DNA of 64,000 bases from Candidatus Methanimicrococcus labiotermitis (GCA_009784005.1 WRCE01000003.1:10519-74518); one strand, 5' to 3'; positions 50,081 through 58,622 are shown, numbered from the stretch's first letter. Notes: generated by a model from the letters alone, not told the origin. Numbers and translations are program-made.

Positions 50081-51334
50081 ATGGATTCAGAATGGTTGAC
50101 TCCCAAAGAAGCCGGAGTTAAATGGGGAATAAAAACGAGGCGCGTACAAGCACTTTGCTTAAAGGGGCAAATAAACGGTGCGGTTCGCATAGATCGATTT
50201 TGGTTAATTCCTAAAAACACTCCAAAACCCATTGATAGTCGAACGAAAATCAAAAAGCAATTACATAGTCAAGTGAATGAAATTGATACAGTCAAAGATA
50301 ATAATAAACCACGATTAATTTCATTATTCTCTGGTTGCGGTGGTCTTGACCTTGGTTTTGAAAAGGCGGGATTTGAGAGAGTGTGGGCTAATGACTTTGA
50401 TTCAGATGCACAAGCTGTTTATACCCGTAATCTTGGTAAAATAGATGGGCGGGATATATTAAGCGTAGATGAAGACGATATTCCTGAAGGGGATATATTA
50501 ACAGCTGGATTTCCCTGTCAACCATTTTCTAATGCTGGGAACCGTAAAGGTGTTCATGATTCTAGGGGTATGCTATACAAGGAATGCCTTCGAATTATTG
50601 AAAGTAAAATGCCAAAGGTTATTGTATTTGAAAATGTAAAAGGATTATTGTCAACAAAATATATTGATGGGCGCAACTTGGTTGACGTCATTAATGAAGA
50701 TTTGTCAACAATTGGAGGCGTGGGTTACAATGTTGTTCATAAACTTCTAAACGCTGCTGACTACGGCGTTCCACAAAACAGGCAAAGAGTTTTTTTTGTT
50801 GGGATAAAAAAAGATTTAAAAATTAATTTTGTTTTTCCCGAAAAGCAAATAAAAAATAATTTGACAATTCGGAATGTTCTGGAAATGCCCAAAGATTTAC
50901 CCAATCAAATTGATTGGGGGTTGTCACCCCAAGCACTTGAAATGATTGAATACATACCAGAGGGTGGTTCTTGGAAAGATATTCCTTATGAGCAATTAGC
51001 GCCTCGTTTTCAACGAATAAGAGATGATATGAAGAAATATCGCTCGCCTAATTTTTATAGACGTTTTTCGCGTGATGAAATTAACGGAACAATTACAGCA
51101 TCGGCTCAACCCGAAAACTGTGGTATTATCCACCCGACCGAAAATCGCCGTTATACGATTCGTGAAATTGCTCGAATACAAACTTTTCCAGATGATTTCC
51201 TATTTATTGATGACACACCAAAAAACATTACAGCAATGTATAAAGTCATTGGAAATGCCGTGCCCGTAATCCTAGCTCAGAATATAGCCTCTTCGATTAT
51301 GGAACAAGTTTTCAAAGGAGAACAGGCATGTTAA
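50081..51334 (+). CDS. DNA (cytosine-5)-methyltransferase with an N-terminal helix-turn-helix (excisionase/MerR-like) domain
   Basis: C5-MTase motifs I LFSGCGGLDLGF, IV GFPCQPFS, VI FENVKGL, VIII QNRQRVFFVG and X IGNAVP. The N-terminal ~50 aa (WLTPKEAGVKWGIKTRRVQALCLKGQI) look like an HTH. Confidence 0.9.
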   Translation: MDSEWLTPKEAGVKWGIKTRRVQALCLKGQINGAVRIDRFWLIPKNTPKPIDSRTKIKKQLHSQVNEIDTVKDNNKPRLISLFSGCGGLDLGFEKAGFERVWANDFDSDAQAVYTRNLGKIDGRDILSVDEDDIPEGDILTAGFPCQPFSNAGNRKGVHDSRGMLYKECLRIIESKMPKVIVFENVKGLLSTKYIDGRNLVDVINEDLSTIGGVGYNVVHKLLNAADYGVPQNRQRVFFVGIKKDLKINFVFPEKQIKNNLTIRNVLEMPKDLPNQIDWGLSPQALEMIEYIPEGGSWKDIPYEQLAPRFQRIRDDMKKYRSPNFYRRFSRDEINGTITASAQPENCGIIHPTENRRYTIREIARIQTFPDDFLFIDDTPKNITAMYKVIGNAVPVILAQNIASSIMEQVFKGEQAC

Positions 51335-52896
51335 TGAATACCGATAAAGCATATCTTTTTGGTTTGATAATCGGTGGTGGGATTTGGCGAAACAACGAAG
51401 ACGGATTCATAATCCACCTCCCGTATAGGAAATGGGGTTCATATGACCAGAATCCCAGACGTGCCTCTCAAATATCAGGAGACATTGTACAATTTTTAAA
51501 CCCATTGTTTAGAAACATTTACGGCCTCAATATTTCTTTTGATGGAACTGCTCGCGGTGATTGGAATATTTTGTTTGAGGGAGATTTGACAGAGTTGAAA
51601 TCCGATTTGCAGTCATACGGTATTGAATGCGAAGGCGAATTGCGTAGTACTGCAAGTATTGGTGGGATAATTGCTGATTTATTTGATGAAAATATGAAAC
51701 GGAGATTTATTGCAGGACTTGCCGATACCATAGGTAGCACAAATAAAAACCACCGGCGATTTTCAGCTGAAATCCAAACTTTATCGTTTGAGTTAAAAGG
51801 CTTTAATTTCTCATTCGTTTGTGAGTTGTGCCGCCTTTTGTATAGTGTAAACTGTTTACCCGATCAAATTCTGTGGAACCATCCCAACTTCCAATCAGCA
51901 AGTGACTCTTACTATACGAAATGGAATAAAGGTACCAAACTCCGCATCCAACTTGATCAATATGCTAAATTCGGAGCGTTTGCTTTCAAAACAAAGGCGG
52001 AATCATCTATCGAAAATCGTAGCTTGCAGCAACAAACGCATAGTGCAGTTTCGTGCCCCGAACGCGAAATTCGAGCGAAAACTTCCTGCTTTCATCCCGG
52101 AGAGAATGATAAAAGGTTGCCTGATTGCATCCGTGGAGGACATTATCTCCATAATCGCCATGTCTGTGCTGTTATGGGATGTGAAAATGCACCATATGAT
52201 ACTATTAGAGGCTTATTTTCAAATGTTGGAGATTTAATTATTCCTTTCCCAATATTGTGTAAAAATACAATACAGAAAATAGAAGAAATAATTAAAGAAG
52301 AGCCGTTGCTTGCTAATCGAGAGTATTCTATTGCAAACGTTAGTGTAAAATCATTATACGAACTTTATAAAGCAGACCATAACGCATTATTATTTGGAAA
52401 CAATGCTAATAATGGGTACCCTATTGCCAAAATAATCCAAGGCATATCTTATGTGATTGCTGATGAAAATGAATTAAATGGCGCACGCCCCAAAGGCAAC
52501 TTTGAAAAGATTGTAGAACATCGCATACATCATGAAATGAATAATAAATACCCAAATATTCTTTCTAGGTTTGAAGTTCAAGAGTCAAATTTTATTATTG
52601 CTGAAAATACTGAAGGAGTTTCCTATACAGTAAATGCTGATGAGCTAAATAAACACCCTAAAAATAAATCACTGATAGACTTAGGGCGTGATTTGTCTAC
52701 CGCCACTGGCCTTATGGTCGAATTCCGTAAACCTGATTTGTTAACACCTTTAGTAATCACTGGAAATGGTCGAGGTGTATTGATTGGTGCGCATAACCCG
52801 AGTGTTTATGAAAAACTTGTTACGATTGCCCCGGATAATGAATATAAATTGTGTGTCCGCCCAATAACTGAAGGAGATTTGCGTAATGCGAAATGA
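51328..52896 (+). CDS. Hypothetical 522-aa protein with two degenerate LAGLIDADG-like motifs; candidate nuclease or specificity partner of the upstream methyltransferase
   Basis: KAYLFGLIIGGG (aa ~7-18) and RRFIAGLADTIGS (aa ~124-136) resemble LAGLIDADG motifs at roughly the spacing expected of a double-motif LAGLIDADG enzyme. The gene overlaps both neighbours (7 nt and 11 nt). The functional assignment is tentative. Confidence 0.45.
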   Translation: MLMNTDKAYLFGLIIGGGIWRNNEDGFIIHLPYRKWGSYDQNPRRASQISGDIVQFLNPLFRNIYGLNISFDGTARGDWNILFEGDLTELKSDLQSYGIECEGELRSTASIGGIIADLFDENMKRRFIAGLADTIGSTNKNHRRFSAEIQTLSFELKGFNFSFVCELCRLLYSVNCLPDQILWNHPNFQSASDSYYTKWNKGTKLRIQLDQYAKFGAFAFKTKAESSIENRSLQQQTHSAVSCPEREIRAKTSCFHPGENDKRLPDCIRGGHYLHNRHVCAVMGCENAPYDTIRGLFSNVGDLIIPFPILCKNTIQKIEEIIKEEPLLANREYSIANVSVKSLYELYKADHNALLFGNNANNGYPIAKIIQGISYVIADENELNGARPKGNFEKIVEHRIHHEMNNKYPNILSRFEVQESNFIIAENTEGVSYTVNADELNKHPKNKSLIDLGRDLSTATGLMVEFRKPDLLTPLVITGNGRGVLIGAHNPSVYEKLVTIAPDNEYKLCVRPITEGDLRNAK

Positions 52897-53458
52897 AGTA
52901 TCCTATTACCCAGAGATACAGACTTTTATCGAAGCGCAATTAAGAAGCAATTTTTTGGCGAGTAACCGCCGCGAATTGTATGTATATTGGGGAATCGGCG
53001 AATTGAAAAACAATCTCCAACGTATCATTATCGAGCACCCCGACAAATGTGCTTGCGTTTCAAAATTCGCAGAGCGTGTTCCACCGTTAAGTCTTGATAT
53101 ATTTGCTCTGATTACAGATGGGATAAAATTCGAACTTTTGATTTTAGAGATCAAACTTTTGAATGCCGTAGGGTTGAAAGAATGGTCACAACTTGTGGGA
53201 TATTGTTTTGTATCAGGTTCAAAATATGGGTTGCTTGTCAATATCAACAACGGGGCCAGTCCACGCTTAACTCAATTATTGCATACTGAACATCATATAT
53301 CTCACATACAGACAATAGTTAATAGTGAGCCTTGTGAACATATGCTTGGATTCATGCAATGGAATGACCTTACCCAAAATTTTGAATATAGCAATTTCGG
53401 TTTTATTAAATCGTTATCGGAATTAAGTGATAGACTCGCAGCCGAATTTTCAAAATAA
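52886..53458 (+). CDS. PD-(D/E)XK-like nuclease-fold protein (candidate restriction endonuclease subunit)
   Basis: PPLSLDIFALITDG...FELLILEIKLL gives a D...ExK arrangement followed by ...SQLVGY. It is the last gene of the operon. Confidence 0.5.
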   Translation: MRNEVSYYPEIQTFIEAQLRSNFLASNRRELYVYWGIGELKNNLQRIIIEHPDKCACVSKFAERVPPLSLDIFALITDGIKFELLILEIKLLNAVGLKEWSQLVGYCFVSGSKYGLLVNINNGASPRLTQLLHTEHHISHIQTIVNSEPCEHMLGFMQWNDLTQNFEYSNFGFIKSLSELSDRLAAEFSK

Positions 53459-53749: not shown

Positions 53750-54670
53750 TTAACTGATTTTTTTAACTTCTGATTCGAGTTTCTCAAGATTCTTCTTATG
53801 TTTCCGAATATTTTCTCTTATTTCTTTGCATTTCTCAGAATTAAAACTAACATTCTTTTTTTTATTTTTGAAGTATTCAATGCCATTTTCATTGCATAAA
53901 ACAGAATGAGCGAAAATATTTCGAGGTATTATAATTTCATTATGATATTCCCTTGAAAAATCATCCAGATCTAACTGATTTAATATTTCACCAATTGCTA
54001 AAGATTGTTGATATGACGAAAAGAGAAGAGGATCGGCCATCAAATCATCAATCGAACATTCGAGTTTGCACTTTTCAAAATATTTGGACTTGGACCTGAG
54101 ATGAGTGGCAATTTCATCAAATATTTTTTTTGATAATTGTTCTGTATCTAACTCAGCGCATTTTGTACATGAATTGATGATTTCAAAAGCCGCAGCGTCT
54201 AATGAGCTGGTTTCATGCATAATCATACCGCGCATGGCAATTATATGCTGAAATTTTTGAATTGTCAAATCAATAAGTTTAATAATTTCATTATAAACTG
54301 ACTTATGATGAGTTTCAGAAGAGAATTTGGAAGTTTCTAAAAATGTGCTACGATTAATTTGACCAATATCCCTTAATTTTTTTGCAGTATAGAATAAAAT
54401 TTCTGTGGAAATGTTTGATTGGCGAATAAGTTGAATTATTTGATCACCGTTTTTTCCTGTGGATTCATCCTCCACTAGATTATAGTCTATAAGCATGAGA
54501 TCAAAATCCTCATTTAGGGATCGCTCAAAATCGTCAGAATTTGAAATTGAGATAATGGATGGTTCAAATCCATGATTAGATAAATGCACTTTTACTTTTT
54601 CAAGCCAGTCATCATCAATAAAATCATTAATACGATCATCTAACCATAGAATGTTATACCTTAGTTTCAT
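53750..54670 (-). CDS. Receiver (CheY-like REC) domain protein with a C-terminal HEPN-like domain (RNIFAH motif)
   Basis: REC features: acidic pocket ILWLDD, phospho-acceptor candidate D62 in DLMLIDYNL, and T95 in LFYTAKK. The C-terminal half is all-alpha and carries Rx4H as R250-N-I-F-A-H255 (complement 53906..53923). It overlaps the kinase gene by 4 nt. Confidence 0.6.
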   Translation of the reverse strand: MKLRYNILWLDDRINDFIDDDWLEKVKVHLSNHGFEPSIISISNSDDFERSLNEDFDLMLIDYNLVEDESTGKNGDQIIQLIRQSNISTEILFYTAKKLRDIGQINRSTFLETSKFSSETHHKSVYNEIIKLIDLTIQKFQHIIAMRGMIMHETSSLDAAAFEIINSCTKCAELDTEQLSKKIFDEIATHLRSKSKYFEKCKLECSIDDLMADPLLFSSYQQSLAIGEILNQLDLDDFSREYHNEIIIPRNIFAHSVLCNENGIEYFKNKKKNVSFNSEKCKEIRENIRKHKKNLEKLESEVKKIS

Positions 54671-57324
54671 AGTCCCAACTCTATAATAAAAACAGTTTTT
54701 ACATTTTCTTCAGAAGAAACCGTTATTTTTCCTTTCATATCTTTTTGAATCGTTGATTTTATTATATACAATCCAATACCGGATCCGTCTGTCGTTGTAA
54801 AACCTAAATCAAAAATTTGATCTAGATGCTCCGCGGCAATTCCTTTGCCGTTATCTTCAACGGCTATCCTCAATCCTAAATCTGTAACATTAAAATCAAA
54901 ATAAATGTCACTAGCGCCTGCTTTTTCTGCGTTATTAATGAAATTATCAATAAGAATTGTAACCTCAAGAGGGCTAAATTCTTTTACGAACTCCTTATTG
55001 TTATCTGTTAAATGGATCTTTAATTTTGTATTTAGAAGCGGTTCAGAAGATAGGTAAATTTCTTCAACATATTCCTTTATGAATTGAACAAGATCTCTAG
55101 TTATTGAATTGGAGTTTACGCCGAAATTTGCTCGTGTAATGAAATTCGATACGGATTTAATTTTGGAGGATTCTTTCATGATTGTATAAATTTTAGCTAA
55201 ATCTTTTTCTGAAACATTTTTACTCCTCAATAAAGAATTAGCATTCTCAATAATCCGGCTAGAAGAATGACCAATGTTGTGTTGAAGTCCCATTATGTGT
55301 TCTTTGTCCATCCCAATTAGAGAACTTTGAAACAATCTTCTCTTTTTCTCTTCATTGAATTTCACAACGGCTTCTTCTCTTTCTTTCTCTGCATTTGCCC
55401 TTTTTTCTGATTCGTCCTTAGCTTTTTGTTCTGCCTCTTTTCGAGCAAACTCTTCTTCACGCTTTTTAAGCTCTGCTTCTCTTTGAGCAAGTTCCGCTTT
55501 TTCTCGTGCTTCTTCTTCTTTTTGTCGTTCTGTTTCAGCTTTCTTCCTAGCTTCTTCCGCTTCTTTTCTCTTTTGTTCTGCTTCACGCTTTTTAAGCTCT
55601 GCTTCTCTTTGAGCGAGCTCTGCTTTTTTTCGTGCTTCTTCTTCTTTTTGTCGTTCTGTTTCGGCTTTCTTCCTAGCTTCTTCTTCCGCTTTCTTTTGTT
55701 CTTCTGCTTCTATTCTCTTTTTTTCTTCCTCAATGAATTTGCGTTCAGTTTCCATTTTTTGATTTAATAATACCACATACTTTTTTTCAGCATCCTCAAC
55801 GCTTTTAAACAATTCTGAATTATTTGTTTTCGTAGCAATTTTTGAAATGTCTTTAAATATAGATGGATTTACTTTTTCAAGATTATCCTTAATTATTGAA
55901 AACAAATCTTTATCATACTCTAAAATTTCAATATCTTTATTGTCAGATAGTTTTTTTATGATTTTTACAAGATGAAACCGACTTCCCAGATTCTTTTGAA
56001 TTATAGACGTGTCTTCTCGATTCTTGTCACCATCAAGAAGTTCTTTCTCCGTGAAAAACCCCTTGGACTCCCATCCAAGACCCCATTGAACAAACCCAAT
56101 ATACCTTTCCAACGGTTTAAGGGATTTTTCAAAAAATAATTCTTTAAGAATGAGGTATTCGGGTGTTTCTACAAGACCCCCGTCACGACTCGATGCTTCA
56201 CGGAAATAAGATGAATCGGTTATTAATTCGATTCGACCAAAAAGATCCCTTGTACCCAAAAAACGCCGATTTCCTTGTTGATGCCTAAAATCAATGCCTA
56301 AGCTATCGTCTCCAAGAGCTCCGTATGGAGAAACTCTAAATCCATTTTTAAAAAGGAATATGGAGCCAAACCTAACCGGCTCAATACCCATTGTTCTCGT
56401 AAAATTTGTTTTTGCAATAGTATTTAAATAATAGATATGAAACGAAGCGTCATTTAAAAAAGAACTATGAATATTTTTTTCACGAACTTTATAGATTAAT
56501 GTTCCACGGTCAACCAATTCGGTTGTAATCCACTCATCGGACATTGACGTTTTTATTTGAGTTGTTTTTAAGTTCAATTTTTCAAAAATAAAATTATTTA
56601 CCGGACCATTGACCTGAGTTAAGTATCGACCAGTTCCTTGGCGATGAATTCTCTTACGGCTAGACTTACCTTTATCATCTTCTGAAAGGTCAGATGTACT
56701 AGTAAGCCAAATTTCAAAATCAAGAGAATCAAAGGGATTAATAAGCTTTTCCAACGATTGTTTTAATTCAATTTTTCTCTCATAATCCCACTTGGAACGT
56801 AAAGATGAGATTTCAAGAACAACTCCGCTATCGAAATAATTAGAGACTGTCTCATGATTAACTTTTATTTGATAAAATTCTTTTTTCGGGTCTTTTTCGA
56901 ATGAATCCCAATCAACATAAACTCTTTCGGTAAAATCAGTACCTTTTTTGCGTGATGTTAGCACTAATTTTTGACCTACTCGATCACAAGAAAAACGTCC
57001 GATACCTTTGGAACCAGCATAATATTTGCGCTTAATATTATCACGATAACTGGTATTTTTTTCAGAGGGCAAATCTTCAGTTCCATCTATTTTTGCAGAA
57101 TATGCAACAAATAACCATTTATTAATAATATCCTCTAAGGACATGCCCTTTCCATCATCCTTGATAATAATTTTATCAGGTTCAAAAATGATTTCAACTT
57201 TTTTTGAAAAAGCATCATATGAATTTTTTACAAGTTCAAAGATTGCAATGAAATCATCAGTAATTAAATCTTTACCGATGATACTTTTTAATGCAGAACT
57301 AACTTTAAAAGACAATTCATCCAT
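54667..57324 (-). CDS. Dual-GHKL protein: N-terminal MORC/Hsp90-type ATPase module, charged coiled coil, C-terminal histidine-kinase module
   Basis: N-terminal module: ELVKNSYDA (N box), IKDDGKGMS (G1), GSKGIGRFS (G2). Residues ~520-650 are a K/E/A/R-rich coiled coil with an internal ~41-aa duplication. C-terminal module: H-box-like LQHNIGHSSS, N box IDNFINNAEKAG, G1 VEDNGKGI, G2 GSGIGLYIIK. Confidence 0.72.
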   Translation of the reverse strand: MDELSFKVSSALKSIIGKDLITDDFIAIFELVKNSYDAFSKKVEIIFEPDKIIIKDDGKGMSLEDIINKWLFVAYSAKIDGTEDLPSEKNTSYRDNIKRKYYAGSKGIGRFSCDRVGQKLVLTSRKKGTDFTERVYVDWDSFEKDPKKEFYQIKVNHETVSNYFDSGVVLEISSLRSKWDYERKIELKQSLEKLINPFDSLDFEIWLTSTSDLSEDDKGKSSRKRIHRQGTGRYLTQVNGPVNNFIFEKLNLKTTQIKTSMSDEWITTELVDRGTLIYKVREKNIHSSFLNDASFHIYYLNTIAKTNFTRTMGIEPVRFGSIFLFKNGFRVSPYGALGDDSLGIDFRHQQGNRRFLGTRDLFGRIELITDSSYFREASSRDGGLVETPEYLILKELFFEKSLKPLERYIGFVQWGLGWESKGFFTEKELLDGDKNREDTSIIQKNLGSRFHLVKIIKKLSDNKDIEILEYDKDLFSIIKDNLEKVNPSIFKDISKIATKTNNSELFKSVEDAEKKYVVLLNQKMETERKFIEEEKKRIEAEEQKKAEEEARKKAETERQKEEEARKKAELAQREAELKKREAEQKRKEAEEARKKAETERQKEEEAREKAELAQREAELKKREEEFARKEAEQKAKDESEKRANAEKEREEAVVKFNEEKKRRLFQSSLIGMDKEHIMGLQHNIGHSSSRIIENANSLLRSKNVSEKDLAKIYTIMKESSKIKSVSNFITRANFGVNSNSITRDLVQFIKEYVEEIYLSSEPLLNTKLKIHLTDNNKEFVKEFSPLEVTILIDNFINNAEKAGASDIYFDFNVTDLGLRIAVEDNGKGIAAEHLDQIFDLGFTTTDGSGIGLYIIKSTIQKDMKGKITVSSEENVKTVFIIELGL

Positions 57325-58531
57325 TCAATTCACCCATTTCTTTTAACGCTAATCCTGCAAGCTCACCGAACAGGGGTGGAATTGCATTTCCAATTTGTGT
57401 GTATCGAGGAACTTCTACTTTCCTCAAAAGCCCCCCTGTCGTATATTTTGCTTTTATTTTATAAGAATCTGGAAATGATTGAATCCGAGCGTATTCTCTT
57501 ACAGTTAAAATACGTGGTTCCGAGTAATGGATATAGTCATCGGGATGTGTTGTCAGTGTAGGACATTTGGAAGTACCGTCCAAGATTGAAATTCCTCTCT
57601 TTTTTACCCCCCACTCATCTCTTTCTTTACTAGTCAATCTTTTATTCCGAGTAGGATATTTCTCCAAAAGATTAGAAAATAACAATTTAGTTTCAGGGTT
57701 ATGTTTTGCAAAACTGTGACTATCTGCCACATCCCCCTTTTGTACGGTATTCGATCTCATTAATTTTTGATATGAACTTTCAGCGCTATTGTACCTACCT
57801 GCACGGAAATTCTTACGATCAGGGCAAGGTGTTGTACCATTTCTCTCAAACAAATCCGATATTGCTTCCGCTACTGTGACAGTTTCAGAGATGCCTTTCA
57901 TTGAAAGAAAATCACTTTTCATGTCATTAATTAACATAAAAAAATCCTTAGCTTTTTTGGATGAAGATTTTTTTAGTACGCCTACTAAAATAAAACGCTT
58001 GCGTCTTTGAGGAATGCCATAGCTTGAAAAATCCACTACATCTGATTCGACATCGTACCCCATATCTTTTAAAGTCTCCACAACAATTTTAGAATAAGGA
58101 ATACCTCGTTTGTCCTCTTTGACAAAAGAATAAGTAAAACCCATAACATTTTCAAAGAAAATAAGTTTGGGGCGAACTAAATCAATAAATTCAATATATG
58201 AATAAACGAGTTGATTTCTTTCATCTTCTTCAATGCGTTTGCCAGCCATTGAAAACCCTTGACATGGCGGGCCACCAGCAACAAGATCGACCTTCCCTCT
58301 TAATGCCATCAAATCATTTCTGTTTTTTTTCAATAATTCGTTGATGTCATGATTAGATTCTTCAAGCCAATCTGGAAAATTGAAATGCTTCCGCTCATCA
58401 ATTAAGTTTGCTTTAAGAGTGGAGAAAGCAAAGGGACTTTTTTCAACTGCAAACAGACCAGACCATCCGGCGTTGTGCAAACCTAGAGAAAGACCCCCAC
58501 ATCCCGCAAATATATCAATATAATTGGGCAT
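57317..58531 (-). CDS. DNA (cytosine-5)-methyltransferase
   Basis: Motifs I IFAGCGGLSLGL, IV GGPPCQGFS, VI FENVMGF, VIII QRRKRFILVG and X IGNAIPP. Overlaps the downstream dual-GHKL gene by 8 nt. Confidence 0.9.
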   Translation of the reverse strand: MPNYIDIFAGCGGLSLGLHNAGWSGLFAVEKSPFAFSTLKANLIDERKHFNFPDWLEESNHDINELLKKNRNDLMALRGKVDLVAGGPPCQGFSMAGKRIEEDERNQLVYSYIEFIDLVRPKLIFFENVMGFTYSFVKEDKRGIPYSKIVVETLKDMGYDVESDVVDFSSYGIPQRRKRFILVGVLKKSSSKKAKDFFMLINDMKSDFLSMKGISETVTVAEAISDLFERNGTTPCPDRKNFRAGRYNSAESSYQKLMRSNTVQKGDVADSHSFAKHNPETKLLFSNLLEKYPTRNKRLTSKERDEWGVKKRGISILDGTSKCPTLTTHPDDYIHYSEPRILTVREYARIQSFPDSYKIKAKYTTGGLLRKVEVPRYTQIGNAIPPLFGELAGLALKEMGELNG

Positions 58532-58622
58532 ATGACTATAATAAGTATGGGAAGAATAAAAAGATACCGGTAAGGACTATTTCTGAAAAATATAAAAAAG
58601 AAAAAGTAACGGGAAATCCCCA

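Follow-up and report, generated by a model that had tools for sequence, protein, structure and literature searches.

The closest described relatives of the locus considered here are the two-component-system (TCS)-like elements reported by Bellieny-Rabelo, Pretorius and Moleleki (2021), who surveyed 644 regions in which a response regulator (RR)-like gene was linked in 91.6% of cases to a soluble HATPase_c_3 + DHp + HATPase_c protein (PMC8011034). C5 methylases lie upstream in these regions and HNH_2 and Vsr genes are frequent, including in Flavobacterium, Chryseobacterium and Bacteroides; the authors regarded the elements as regulatory TCSs derived from paraMORCs, with a signalling role in controlling restriction-modification (R-M) (PMC8011034). 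ParaMORC ATPases are themselves associated with R-M (Iyer 2008). A second relative, Ambrosia of P. aeruginosa, is composed of an XRE protein (AbrR), an N6-adenine methyltransferase (MTase; AbrA), a HATPase protein (AbrB), a receiver (AbrC) and an HNH nuclease (AbrD) (van den Berg et al. 2025, 10.1101/2025.09.30.679545). All of its genes are needed, the substitutions AbrC D60A and AbrB N40A abolish anti-phage defence, and its authors, who report that AbrC contains a helix-turn-helix of the winged type (wHTH) and that expression is infection-induced, favour transcriptional control (10.1101/2025.09.30.679545). Here we describe a cassette of this kind from the archaeon Candidatus Methanimicrococcus labiotermitis, found in a stretch of 64,000 nucleotides (nt) (GCA_009784005.1 WRCE01000003.1:10519-74518; hereafter the window), in which a C5 cytosine methylase gene (dcm) is followed by genes for a dual-GHKL kinase and for REC-X, a receiver protein with an additional C-terminal domain.

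A preliminary description of the window had presented this combination as undescribed, a claim that does not stand, since the association was reported in 2021 (PMC8011034) and Ambrosia is a validated relative. Bacteroides fragilis, one of the species on which the 2021 paper drew, belongs to the 47%-identical cluster of the window kinase. In BLASTP, AbrB(1-399) and the window kinase are 27% identical over 368 columns (E = 5e-21), across the ATPase and middle domains, and AbrB has the same Pfam architecture (sequences from Ambrosia Table S1). Because the window kinase is homologous to AbrB of a validated system, the defence role suggested at the outset is plausible. The new part is a receiver fused to a HEPN-like output, in an archaeal host; the family itself has been known, from computational work, since 2021. 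The MORC paper of Iyer (2008) does not describe the dcm/dual-GHKL kinase/REC-X architecture, and the 2013 HEPN survey contains no receiver fusion paired to a paraMORC kinase (Anantharaman et al. 2013, PMC3710099).

On balance, we read the trio as probably a phosphorelay-controlled defence and/or addiction cassette with a HEPN-type RNase output. Its established parts are the coupled methylase, kinase and receiver genes, with catalytic motifs intact in every module. We assembled 67 loci from one-genome-per-species contigs, approximately 56-60 of which have enough flanking DNA, and in every one of these the order dcm, kinase, REC-X is maintained on one strand. The conserved neighbourhood that the preliminary description had proposed as a check was thus found, and it extends to distant members with 25-29% REC-X identity, one of which has an inverted dcm and another an HNH_2 gene. 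A 4-nt overlap joins the kinase and REC-X genes at 39 of 59 loci, and a 1-nt overlap joins dcm to the kinase gene at 27 of 55. In the window the corresponding overlaps are 4 nt and 8 nt; together with their retention across loci, they uphold the co-transcription and translational coupling first predicted from the sequence. The conserved overlaps and the invariance of an Rx4H motif in REC-X, described below, are far beyond chance. Clustering of neighbouring open reading frames (ORFs) revealed no fourth conserved gene, whether restriction enzyme, Vsr, integrase or tRNA target, and no tRNA lies within 20 kb. No conserved nuclease accompanies the trio as the cognate restriction endonuclease (REase) of a classical type II R-M system; accessory genes among the 67 loci are HNH_2 endonuclease (10 loci) and Vsr (5 loci).

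Most of the 67 loci are from Bacteroidota, with others from Campylobacter, a second Methanimicrococcus, and metagenome-assembled genomes (MAGs) labelled Mycoplasmataceae, Ignavibacteriales, Gammaproteobacteria and Clostridium. The REC-Rx4H family at large is common in Bacteroidota, gut Bacteroides relatives and fish pathogens such as Tenacibaculum among them, and is also present in termite-gut archaea. Termite-gut MAGs that carry the trio comprise two Methanimicrococcus, a Mycoplasmataceae bin and a Bacteroidales bin (L001, L003, L004 and the window), and the archaeal copies constitute a clade of their own (60-83% identity) in an otherwise bacterial family. An archaeal clade nested in this way, and termite-gut MAGs of several phyla, point to a probable inter-domain transfer of the trio in the gut. 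The complete trio was also found on four IMG/VR predicted viral contigs (L082-L085), which may be either prophages or misclassified mobile elements; a tblastn search of plasmids with REC-X gave no match. The trio is a rigid, horizontally mobile cassette. A few kb from one distant copy, a canonical HepT/MNT pair of HEPN toxin and nucleotidyltransferase and a PIN/MazE pair are encoded (L068, 8699-9366) with a resolvase adjoining, surroundings that fit a mobile defence/toxin-antitoxin (TA) island.

The first gene encodes a complete C5 cytosine methyltransferase, as had been claimed. Dcm matches Pfam DNA_methylase (1.2e-56) and TIGR00675 (2.8e-48), and has motifs I (FAGCGG), IV (GPPCQGFS), VI (ENV), VIII (QRRKR) and X (GNAIPP). 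In every locus for which sufficient sequence is available, an ortholog with 52-83% identity lies upstream of the kinase, and Dcm is the best-conserved member of the trio: its identity is still 53-61% in loci with a diverged or replaced receiver protein. Conservation of this strength (53-83%), unusually high across the family, suggests that the enzymes may have one conserved target site. Of the solved structures, eukaryotic DNMT1 (1.5e-23) is closer to Dcm's catalytic half than are M.HhaI/M.HaeIII (~2e-15).

The modules initially read from the kinase sequence, a MORC/Hsp90-type Bergerat ATPase, a charged coiled coil and a histidine-kinase module, are borne out (Table 1), and the motifs quoted for them are conserved in an alignment of 30 homologs (44-69% identity). 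In the N-terminal ATPase, E30/N34/D37, D56xGxG and G104-S112 are invariant, and this end of the kinase profile matches PMS1 and MutL in the PDB. The window kinase also matches an NCBIfam model for the N-terminus of BbrUII/HgiDII REases at 5e-18, under the model cutoff, and the similarity reaches no further than the ATPase region (26-199 of the model's 659 positions). The middle domain is extremely conserved, with the motifs SLEKLINPF, FLFKNGFRVxPYG, RDLFGR and KEVSSRDGG, and the similarity to AbrB runs through it; we presume that it is a sensor or DNA-interaction region. MORC/paraMORC proteins have a GHKL ATPase ahead of an S5-fold domain and occur in an R-M context; the GHKL domain and the context match here, while Pfam scans assigned the middle domain to no family. 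The linker that follows is 86% E/K/R/D/Q/A, with zero Pro and zero Gly. Within it, Tandem Repeats Finder (TRF) detected a tandem duplication at 55451-55710 (period 126 bp, 1.8-2.1 copies, 89-94% matches), which is recent and adds 42 amino acids (aa), and this is why the window kinase, at 885 aa, is longer than its homologs (~810-870 aa).

In the C-terminal half, the N, G1 and G2 boxes (D793/N794/N798, D824xG826xG828 and G847xG849xG851) are invariant in the same homologs. The profile of the DHp and catalytic (CA) domains matches solved histidine kinases, the best being VicK-like 4i5s (5.6e-17), and a match of the kinase profile to HK853 covers residues 5-243 of that chain. H682 aligns with the H-box phospho-acceptor His of ThkA (3a0r) and SrrB (6paj); in the VicK alignment it is the non-conserved H686, not H682, that aligns with the VicK His. 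We take H682 as the putative phospho-acceptor because it is invariant and aligned with the phospho-His in ThkA and SrrB. A membrane sensor kinase was ruled out: with a maximum Kyte-Doolittle(19) value of only 1.15, the protein has no hydrophobic segment and is expected to be soluble, without a transmembrane helix. PADLOC gave no relevant kinase match.

Assignment of the REC-X N-terminus as a CheY-like receiver with D62 and T95, also part of the preliminary description, is upheld at the level of the family. The window protein alone gives a weak Response_reg match (Pfam E = 0.003). Among 62 diverse family members, down to 24% identity, from which all residue counts given here are drawn, 52 match Response_reg, with a best E of 1e-10, and the family profile matches CheY structures at ~4e-6. 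The protein has the marks of a (beta/alpha)5 receiver, with an acidic pocket, a phospho-Asp closing beta3 and a Thr/Ser closing beta4, and these residues are conserved accordingly: D/E11 in 62/62, D12 in 53/62, D62 in 61/62 and S/T95 in 61/62. An AlphaFold2 (AF2) model of full REC-X (pLDDT 85.9), in which alpha4 seems reduced, retrieved CpxR, ComE and CheY-like receivers in Foldseek with TM-scores up to 0.70, the matches being to receiver domains only.

Table 1. Features of the methylase-kinase-receiver cassette, in window coordinates
Feature	Position	Strand	Size or basis
dcm	57317-58531	minus	404 aa
Dual-GHKL kinase gene	54667-57324	minus	885 aa; Ambrosia AbrB homolog
Kinase: MORC/MutL-type Bergerat ATPase (HATPase_c_3), residues 26-149	56878-57249	minus	Pfam 2e-22
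Kinase: middle domain, residues ~150-520	55765-56877	minus	Invariant columns in kinase alignment; no Pfam match
Kinase: charged coiled-coil linker, residues ~521-660	55345-55764	minus	Composition; length varies among homologs
Kinase: DHp-like helical region, putative phospho-acceptor His682 (codon 55279-55281)	55045-55344	minus	H682 invariant, 30 homologs
Kinase: CA domain (HATPase_c), residues 788-883	54676-54963	minus	Pfam 2.3e-22; N/G1/G2 boxes
REC-X gene (receiver + C-terminal domain)	53750-54670	minus	306 aa
REC-X: CheY-like receiver, residues 1-115; D11/D12 pocket, D62 (codon 54485-54487), T95	54326-54670	minus	Profile, structure
REC-X: all-alpha domain + beta-hairpin, residues 116-306; probable HEPN-type RNase effector	53753-54325	minus	AF2, conservation
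REC-X: R250-N251-x-x-x-H255 motif	53906-53923	minus	R250 62/62, H255 62/62
Putative own archaeal promoter of dcm	58586-58622	minus	Read from sequence; T-rich stretch after upstream gene's stop codon

The 190-aa C-terminal domain of REC-X, whose motif reads R-N-x-x-A-H, defines a large family. A hidden Markov model search of 1.84 billion representatives returned at least 709 clusters at 50% identity (E <= 1e-3), and because nearly all of these are ~300 aa long, with the domain at ~115-305, it is almost always fused to a REC-X-type receiver. Y94, R147, G148, R250, H255 and R285 are invariant, and N251, E153 and D158 are each conserved in at least 87% of members. Rare members have an extra C-terminal module, consisting of leucine-rich repeats in P0337 (L072, 7001-8308) and of ~70 residues in P0310.

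HEPN domains are defined as four-helix up-down bundles with inserts between helices 2 and 3, in which an Rx4-6H motif with a polar residue after the R runs from the end of helix 3 into the next loop; in Csx1 a beta-hairpin immediately follows the motif, and the known Rx4H chemistry is metal-independent RNA cleavage (PMC3710099). An AF2 model of the C-terminal domain alone (pLDDT 89.9) has helices at 3-54, 61-89, 104-117 and 124-139, then a hairpin and a helix at 163-190. In full-length numbering the elements run as helices at 149-169 and 176-203, an insert, a helix at 239-254 ending in RNxFAH, the hairpin and a helix at 278-305, and in this predicted model the order of secondary-structure elements fits the HEPN definition. 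The residue after R250 is likewise polar, being N in 59 of 62 members and D in 2. Sub-threshold Pfam matches point in the same direction: RiboL-PSP (0.0016), Swt1 (0.004), HepT (0.0075), MAE_28990 (0.011) and Csm6_HEPN (0.034), with Swt1 matched by 4 members, HepT, MAE_28990 and Csm6_HEPN by 2 each, and RiboL-PSP in addition. Where coordinates are visible, these weak matches stop at the Rx4H motif. The family consensus gives a marginal match to HEPN_Swt1 only (0.052).

More divergent loci provide a second line of evidence on the role of this domain. A Bacteroides finegoldii plasmid (L078) has the order kinase, 209-aa REC, HNH, N6-MTase; Stenotrophomonas (L076) has dcm, kinase, 212-aa REC and a 226-aa protein; Bacteroides (L079) has dcm (61% identical), kinase (47%), 230-aa REC and a 216-aa protein; and in Enterobacter (L077) the kinase is followed by a REC fused to a different domain. 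By hhalign, the receivers are homologous to that of REC-X in Stenotrophomonas (96%), Bacteroides (90%) and Enterobacter (73%, E = 3e-5); the outputs are not common to the loci. The pattern is that of a sensor-transmitter chassis, kinase plus REC, with interchangeable effectors. Swappable outputs on the same chassis favour the Rx4H domain as effector. The ~220-aa proteins that follow the short receivers (L079, 9244-9894; L076, 7785-8465) have no family match; they have (S/G)HG and (I/L)SC motifs in common (BLASTP E = 2e-4), and our guess is that they are His/Cys-dyad effectors, possibly caspase-like. Two GmrSD_N genes, type IV restriction-like, follow the Bacteroides cassette (L079, 11337-14565), which indicates a defence-island setting.

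Taken together, these features allow a mechanism to be proposed. The N-terminal ATPase and middle domain would detect a DNA-level cue. Candidate cues are DNA that is foreign or lacks methylation at the Dcm site, and a DNA structure linked to infection. ATP-driven dimerisation, passed via the coiled coil, would turn on autophosphorylation of H682, and the phosphoryl group would be transferred to Asp62 of the receiver. Phosphorylated receivers would then dimerise and bring two C-terminal domains together into a composite, metal-independent RNase site of the HEPN type, and cleavage of cellular and/or invader RNA would result in growth arrest or abortive infection. The methylase would either mark self DNA, leaving the sensor silent, or render the cassette addictive, in that the effector would be set off once methylation was lost. 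Of these steps, the role of Dcm as self mark or addiction element is the weakest. A stricter version, in which R-M logic is given an abortive-infection output, holds that the paraMORC-type ATPase and middle domain of the kinase read the methylation of one conserved Dcm site and that unmethylated DNA sets off His-Asp phosphotransfer, with the HEPN RNase assembled as the phosphorylated receiver dimerises, in Bacteria and Archaea alike. We hold this version only tentatively and think it rather unlikely; if true, it would be the first case in which a two-component phosphorelay turns epigenetic self/non-self discrimination into RNA cleavage.

Several observations weigh against a HEPN-type defence cassette. 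No HEPN profile passes threshold in Pfam (best E-values 0.0016-0.05), Foldseek searches of PDB and BFVD with the C-terminal model returned zero matches, the C-terminal family profile found nothing among PDB sequences at E <= 10, and PADLOC has no model for REC-X. With Pfam, NCBIfam, PADLOC and PHROGs applied to REC-X and to the C-terminal domain alone, only Response_reg was significant. The conserved acidic residue E153 is in the first helix, not in helix 2, and lies outside an Ex3[KR] context. The function of the REC-X family is inferred, and the host is an archaeon that probably acquired the cassette, in which it may or may not be active. In addition, AbrA-methylated phage stayed sensitive to Ambrosia (10.1101/2025.09.30.679545), and since AbrA methylation did not protect the phage, self-marking by Dcm is unsupported by the sole experimental relative. 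The HEPN domain claimed in the preliminary description is supported in part: the Rx4H motif is invariant and the predicted order of elements fits, but the Pfam matches are sub-threshold and Foldseek is blank. Membership of the C-terminal domain in HEPN is therefore not established, and we judge it to be somewhat more probable than otherwise.

The alternative that survives best is a regulatory TCS, in which the kinase would respond to a cytoplasmic cue and phosphorylate REC-X, and REC-X, by way of its C-terminal domain, would control the methylase or unlinked restriction genes as a transcription or antitermination factor and not be a nuclease. This is close to the signalling role in R-M control proposed in 2021 (PMC8011034), and it draws on the wHTH and the infection-induced expression reported by the Ambrosia authors (10.1101/2025.09.30.679545). 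Some homologs carry the NCBI name 'transcriptional regulator', and in the AF2 model the helix and beta-hairpin at REC-X residues 239-269 are loosely winged-helix-like. However, Pfam, the PDB profile search and Foldseek identified no HTH or wHTH in the C-terminal domain, and AbrC is without the Rx4H domain, to which it has no detectable similarity. Because Foldseek returned nothing with the C-terminal model, HEPN and wHTH are both unconfirmed structurally. At most loci a restriction gene that might be regulated is missing, the invariant R, N, H, R and E residues are typical of catalysis and not of DNA reading, and interchangeable partners such as HNH resemble effectors. We consider this explanation unlikely.

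Also to be weighed is an unconventional R-M system, in which the ATPase and REC-X would restrict unmethylated DNA, with the Rx4H domain cutting DNA and the phosphorelay gating cleavage. The N-terminal GHKL domain does resemble BbrUII/HgiDII enzymes and a PADLOC/DefenseFinder type II REase model, paraMORCs are R-M associated, Dcm is the best-conserved component, and Vsr is a frequent neighbour. Yet the HgiDII-type likeness ends with the ATPase (model positions 26-199/659), no PD-(D/E)XK, HNH, GIY-YIG or PLD motif or match was found in REC-X, and the Rx4H chemistry known from HEPN proteins cleaves RNA, independently of metal, making this a distinctly improbable reading. Least probable is a selfish addiction module that would persist and spread because loss of Dcm methylation activates a kinase-REC-X toxin (post-segregational killing), with defence incidental. 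In its favour are the rigid linkage and overlaps, the patchy cross-domain distribution with transfer into Methanimicrococcus, the position in an AT-rich island, the strong conservation of Dcm and the presence of the trio on predicted viral or mobile contigs. Against it, addiction does not exclude defence (classical R-M systems do both, and sequence does not discriminate between the two), and the homologous Ambrosia protects against phage without reported toxicity (10.1101/2025.09.30.679545).

Returning to the locus that carries this probable defence and/or addiction cassette, ORF calling reproduced exactly the coordinates and sizes of the three overlapping minus-strand genes originally claimed. 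Each protein is 100% identical to an NCBI-annotated Methanimicrococcus sp. protein, those for the kinase and receiver coming from a MAG, which makes the host a methanogenic archaeon. An artefact or pseudogene was ruled out, every ORF being intact and an exact match to its annotated protein. The AT-rich island in which the genes were said to sit is apparent from a GC content of 0.31-0.39 over ~49-58.6 kb, against 0.42-0.54 in the flanks. By sequence inspection, a TATA-like TTTTTTATATTTTT lies ~55-65 nt ahead of the dcm ATG, and the intergenic stretch 58586-58622 is a possible archaeal promoter of dcm's own. Within the same island is a second methylase cassette at 50081-53458 (plus strand), encoding an HTH-fused C5 methylase of 417 aa, then an overlapping 522-aa protein with no family match and, again overlapping, one of 190 aa that gives a weak PD-(D/E)XK/GxxExxY signal. 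This second cassette probably represents a type II R-M system whose endonuclease is uncharacterised, and the sister species lacks it at the equivalent locus (L001).

Should the proposed mechanism hold, two-component phosphorelays would be a general signal-transmission layer in prokaryotic immunity, with a plug-and-play chassis tied to DNA methylation and outputs that are HEPN-like, HNH or others. The cassette offers a three-gene model for what a prokaryotic MORC-like ATPase senses and for how receiver phosphorylation gates an RNase, and it would document the transfer of a kinase-receiver cassette between domains, into a methanogen. It also refines both prior reports: there the receiver protein is taken to be a transcriptional regulator, and here an effector role is indicated in the largest subfamily.

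With the HEPN superfamily of RNases, which includes the Abi2/Swt1, RiboL-PSP, Csx1/Csm6 and HepT families, the C-terminal domain of REC-X shares the Rx4H motif with N after R, an R-M/defence context and, in the predicted model, an insert separating helices 2 and 3 and a Csx1-like hairpin after the motif; it differs in having no significant profile or structure match and in carrying its acidic residue in another helix. With the TCS-like elements of 2021 the window cassette shares the upstream C5 methylase, the soluble HATPase_c_3/DHp/HATPase_c kinase and the adjacent RR-like protein with a conserved Asp (D62 here), and the HNH_2 and Vsr accessories of those elements were recovered independently among our loci. 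The H-box here is LQH-(N/Q)-I, whereas theirs has His followed by Glu/Asp, and those elements were from bacteria only, whereas an archaeal copy is described here. HEF_HK (PF19191) and Response_reg_2 (PF19192) gave no match in the window proteins or 100 homologs (E <= 0.1-1), in a search where the tested relatives were likewise blank and which had no positive control. The 2021 paper treats the RR-like protein as a regulator and does not describe the C-terminal Rx4H/HEPN-like domain or an effector role.

In Ambrosia and in the window cassette alike, a DNA methylase is clustered with a dual-GHKL kinase and a receiver protein, and the residues required for defence have equivalents here, AbrC D60 in REC-X D62 and AbrB N40 in N34 of the window kinase. 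Ambrosia has an N6-adenine MTase, an XRE protein and a separate HNH; the window has a C5 MTase and neither XRE nor HNH. AbrC, at 209 aa, is without the Rx4H domain, whereas REC-X, at 306 aa, has the extra domain, and hhalign of the REC-X family profile against AbrC gave a probability of 0.1. AbrD is unrelated by BLASTP to the HNH_2 accessory found at 10 of the 67 loci. An Ambrosia-like arrangement proper is instead that of the Bacteroides finegoldii plasmid described above.

Detocs, from the 2023 work of Rousset et al., is said to comprise a kinase (DtcA), a buffer receiver (DtcB) and a receiver-effector (DtcC), with a nucleosidase as effector; on sensing infection, its histidine kinase reportedly phosphorylates a receiver domain to which a toxic effector is fused. 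No sequence relationship to Detocs was detected, and PADLOC gave no REC-X match. The window cassette has one receiver gene and no buffer receiver, Detocs is not known to include a methylase, and here the sensor is of the GHKL/paraMORC type, not that of DtcA, and the effector is HEPN-like in place of a nucleosidase. The logic proposed here is nonetheless the same, with a kinase acting on a receiver-effector.

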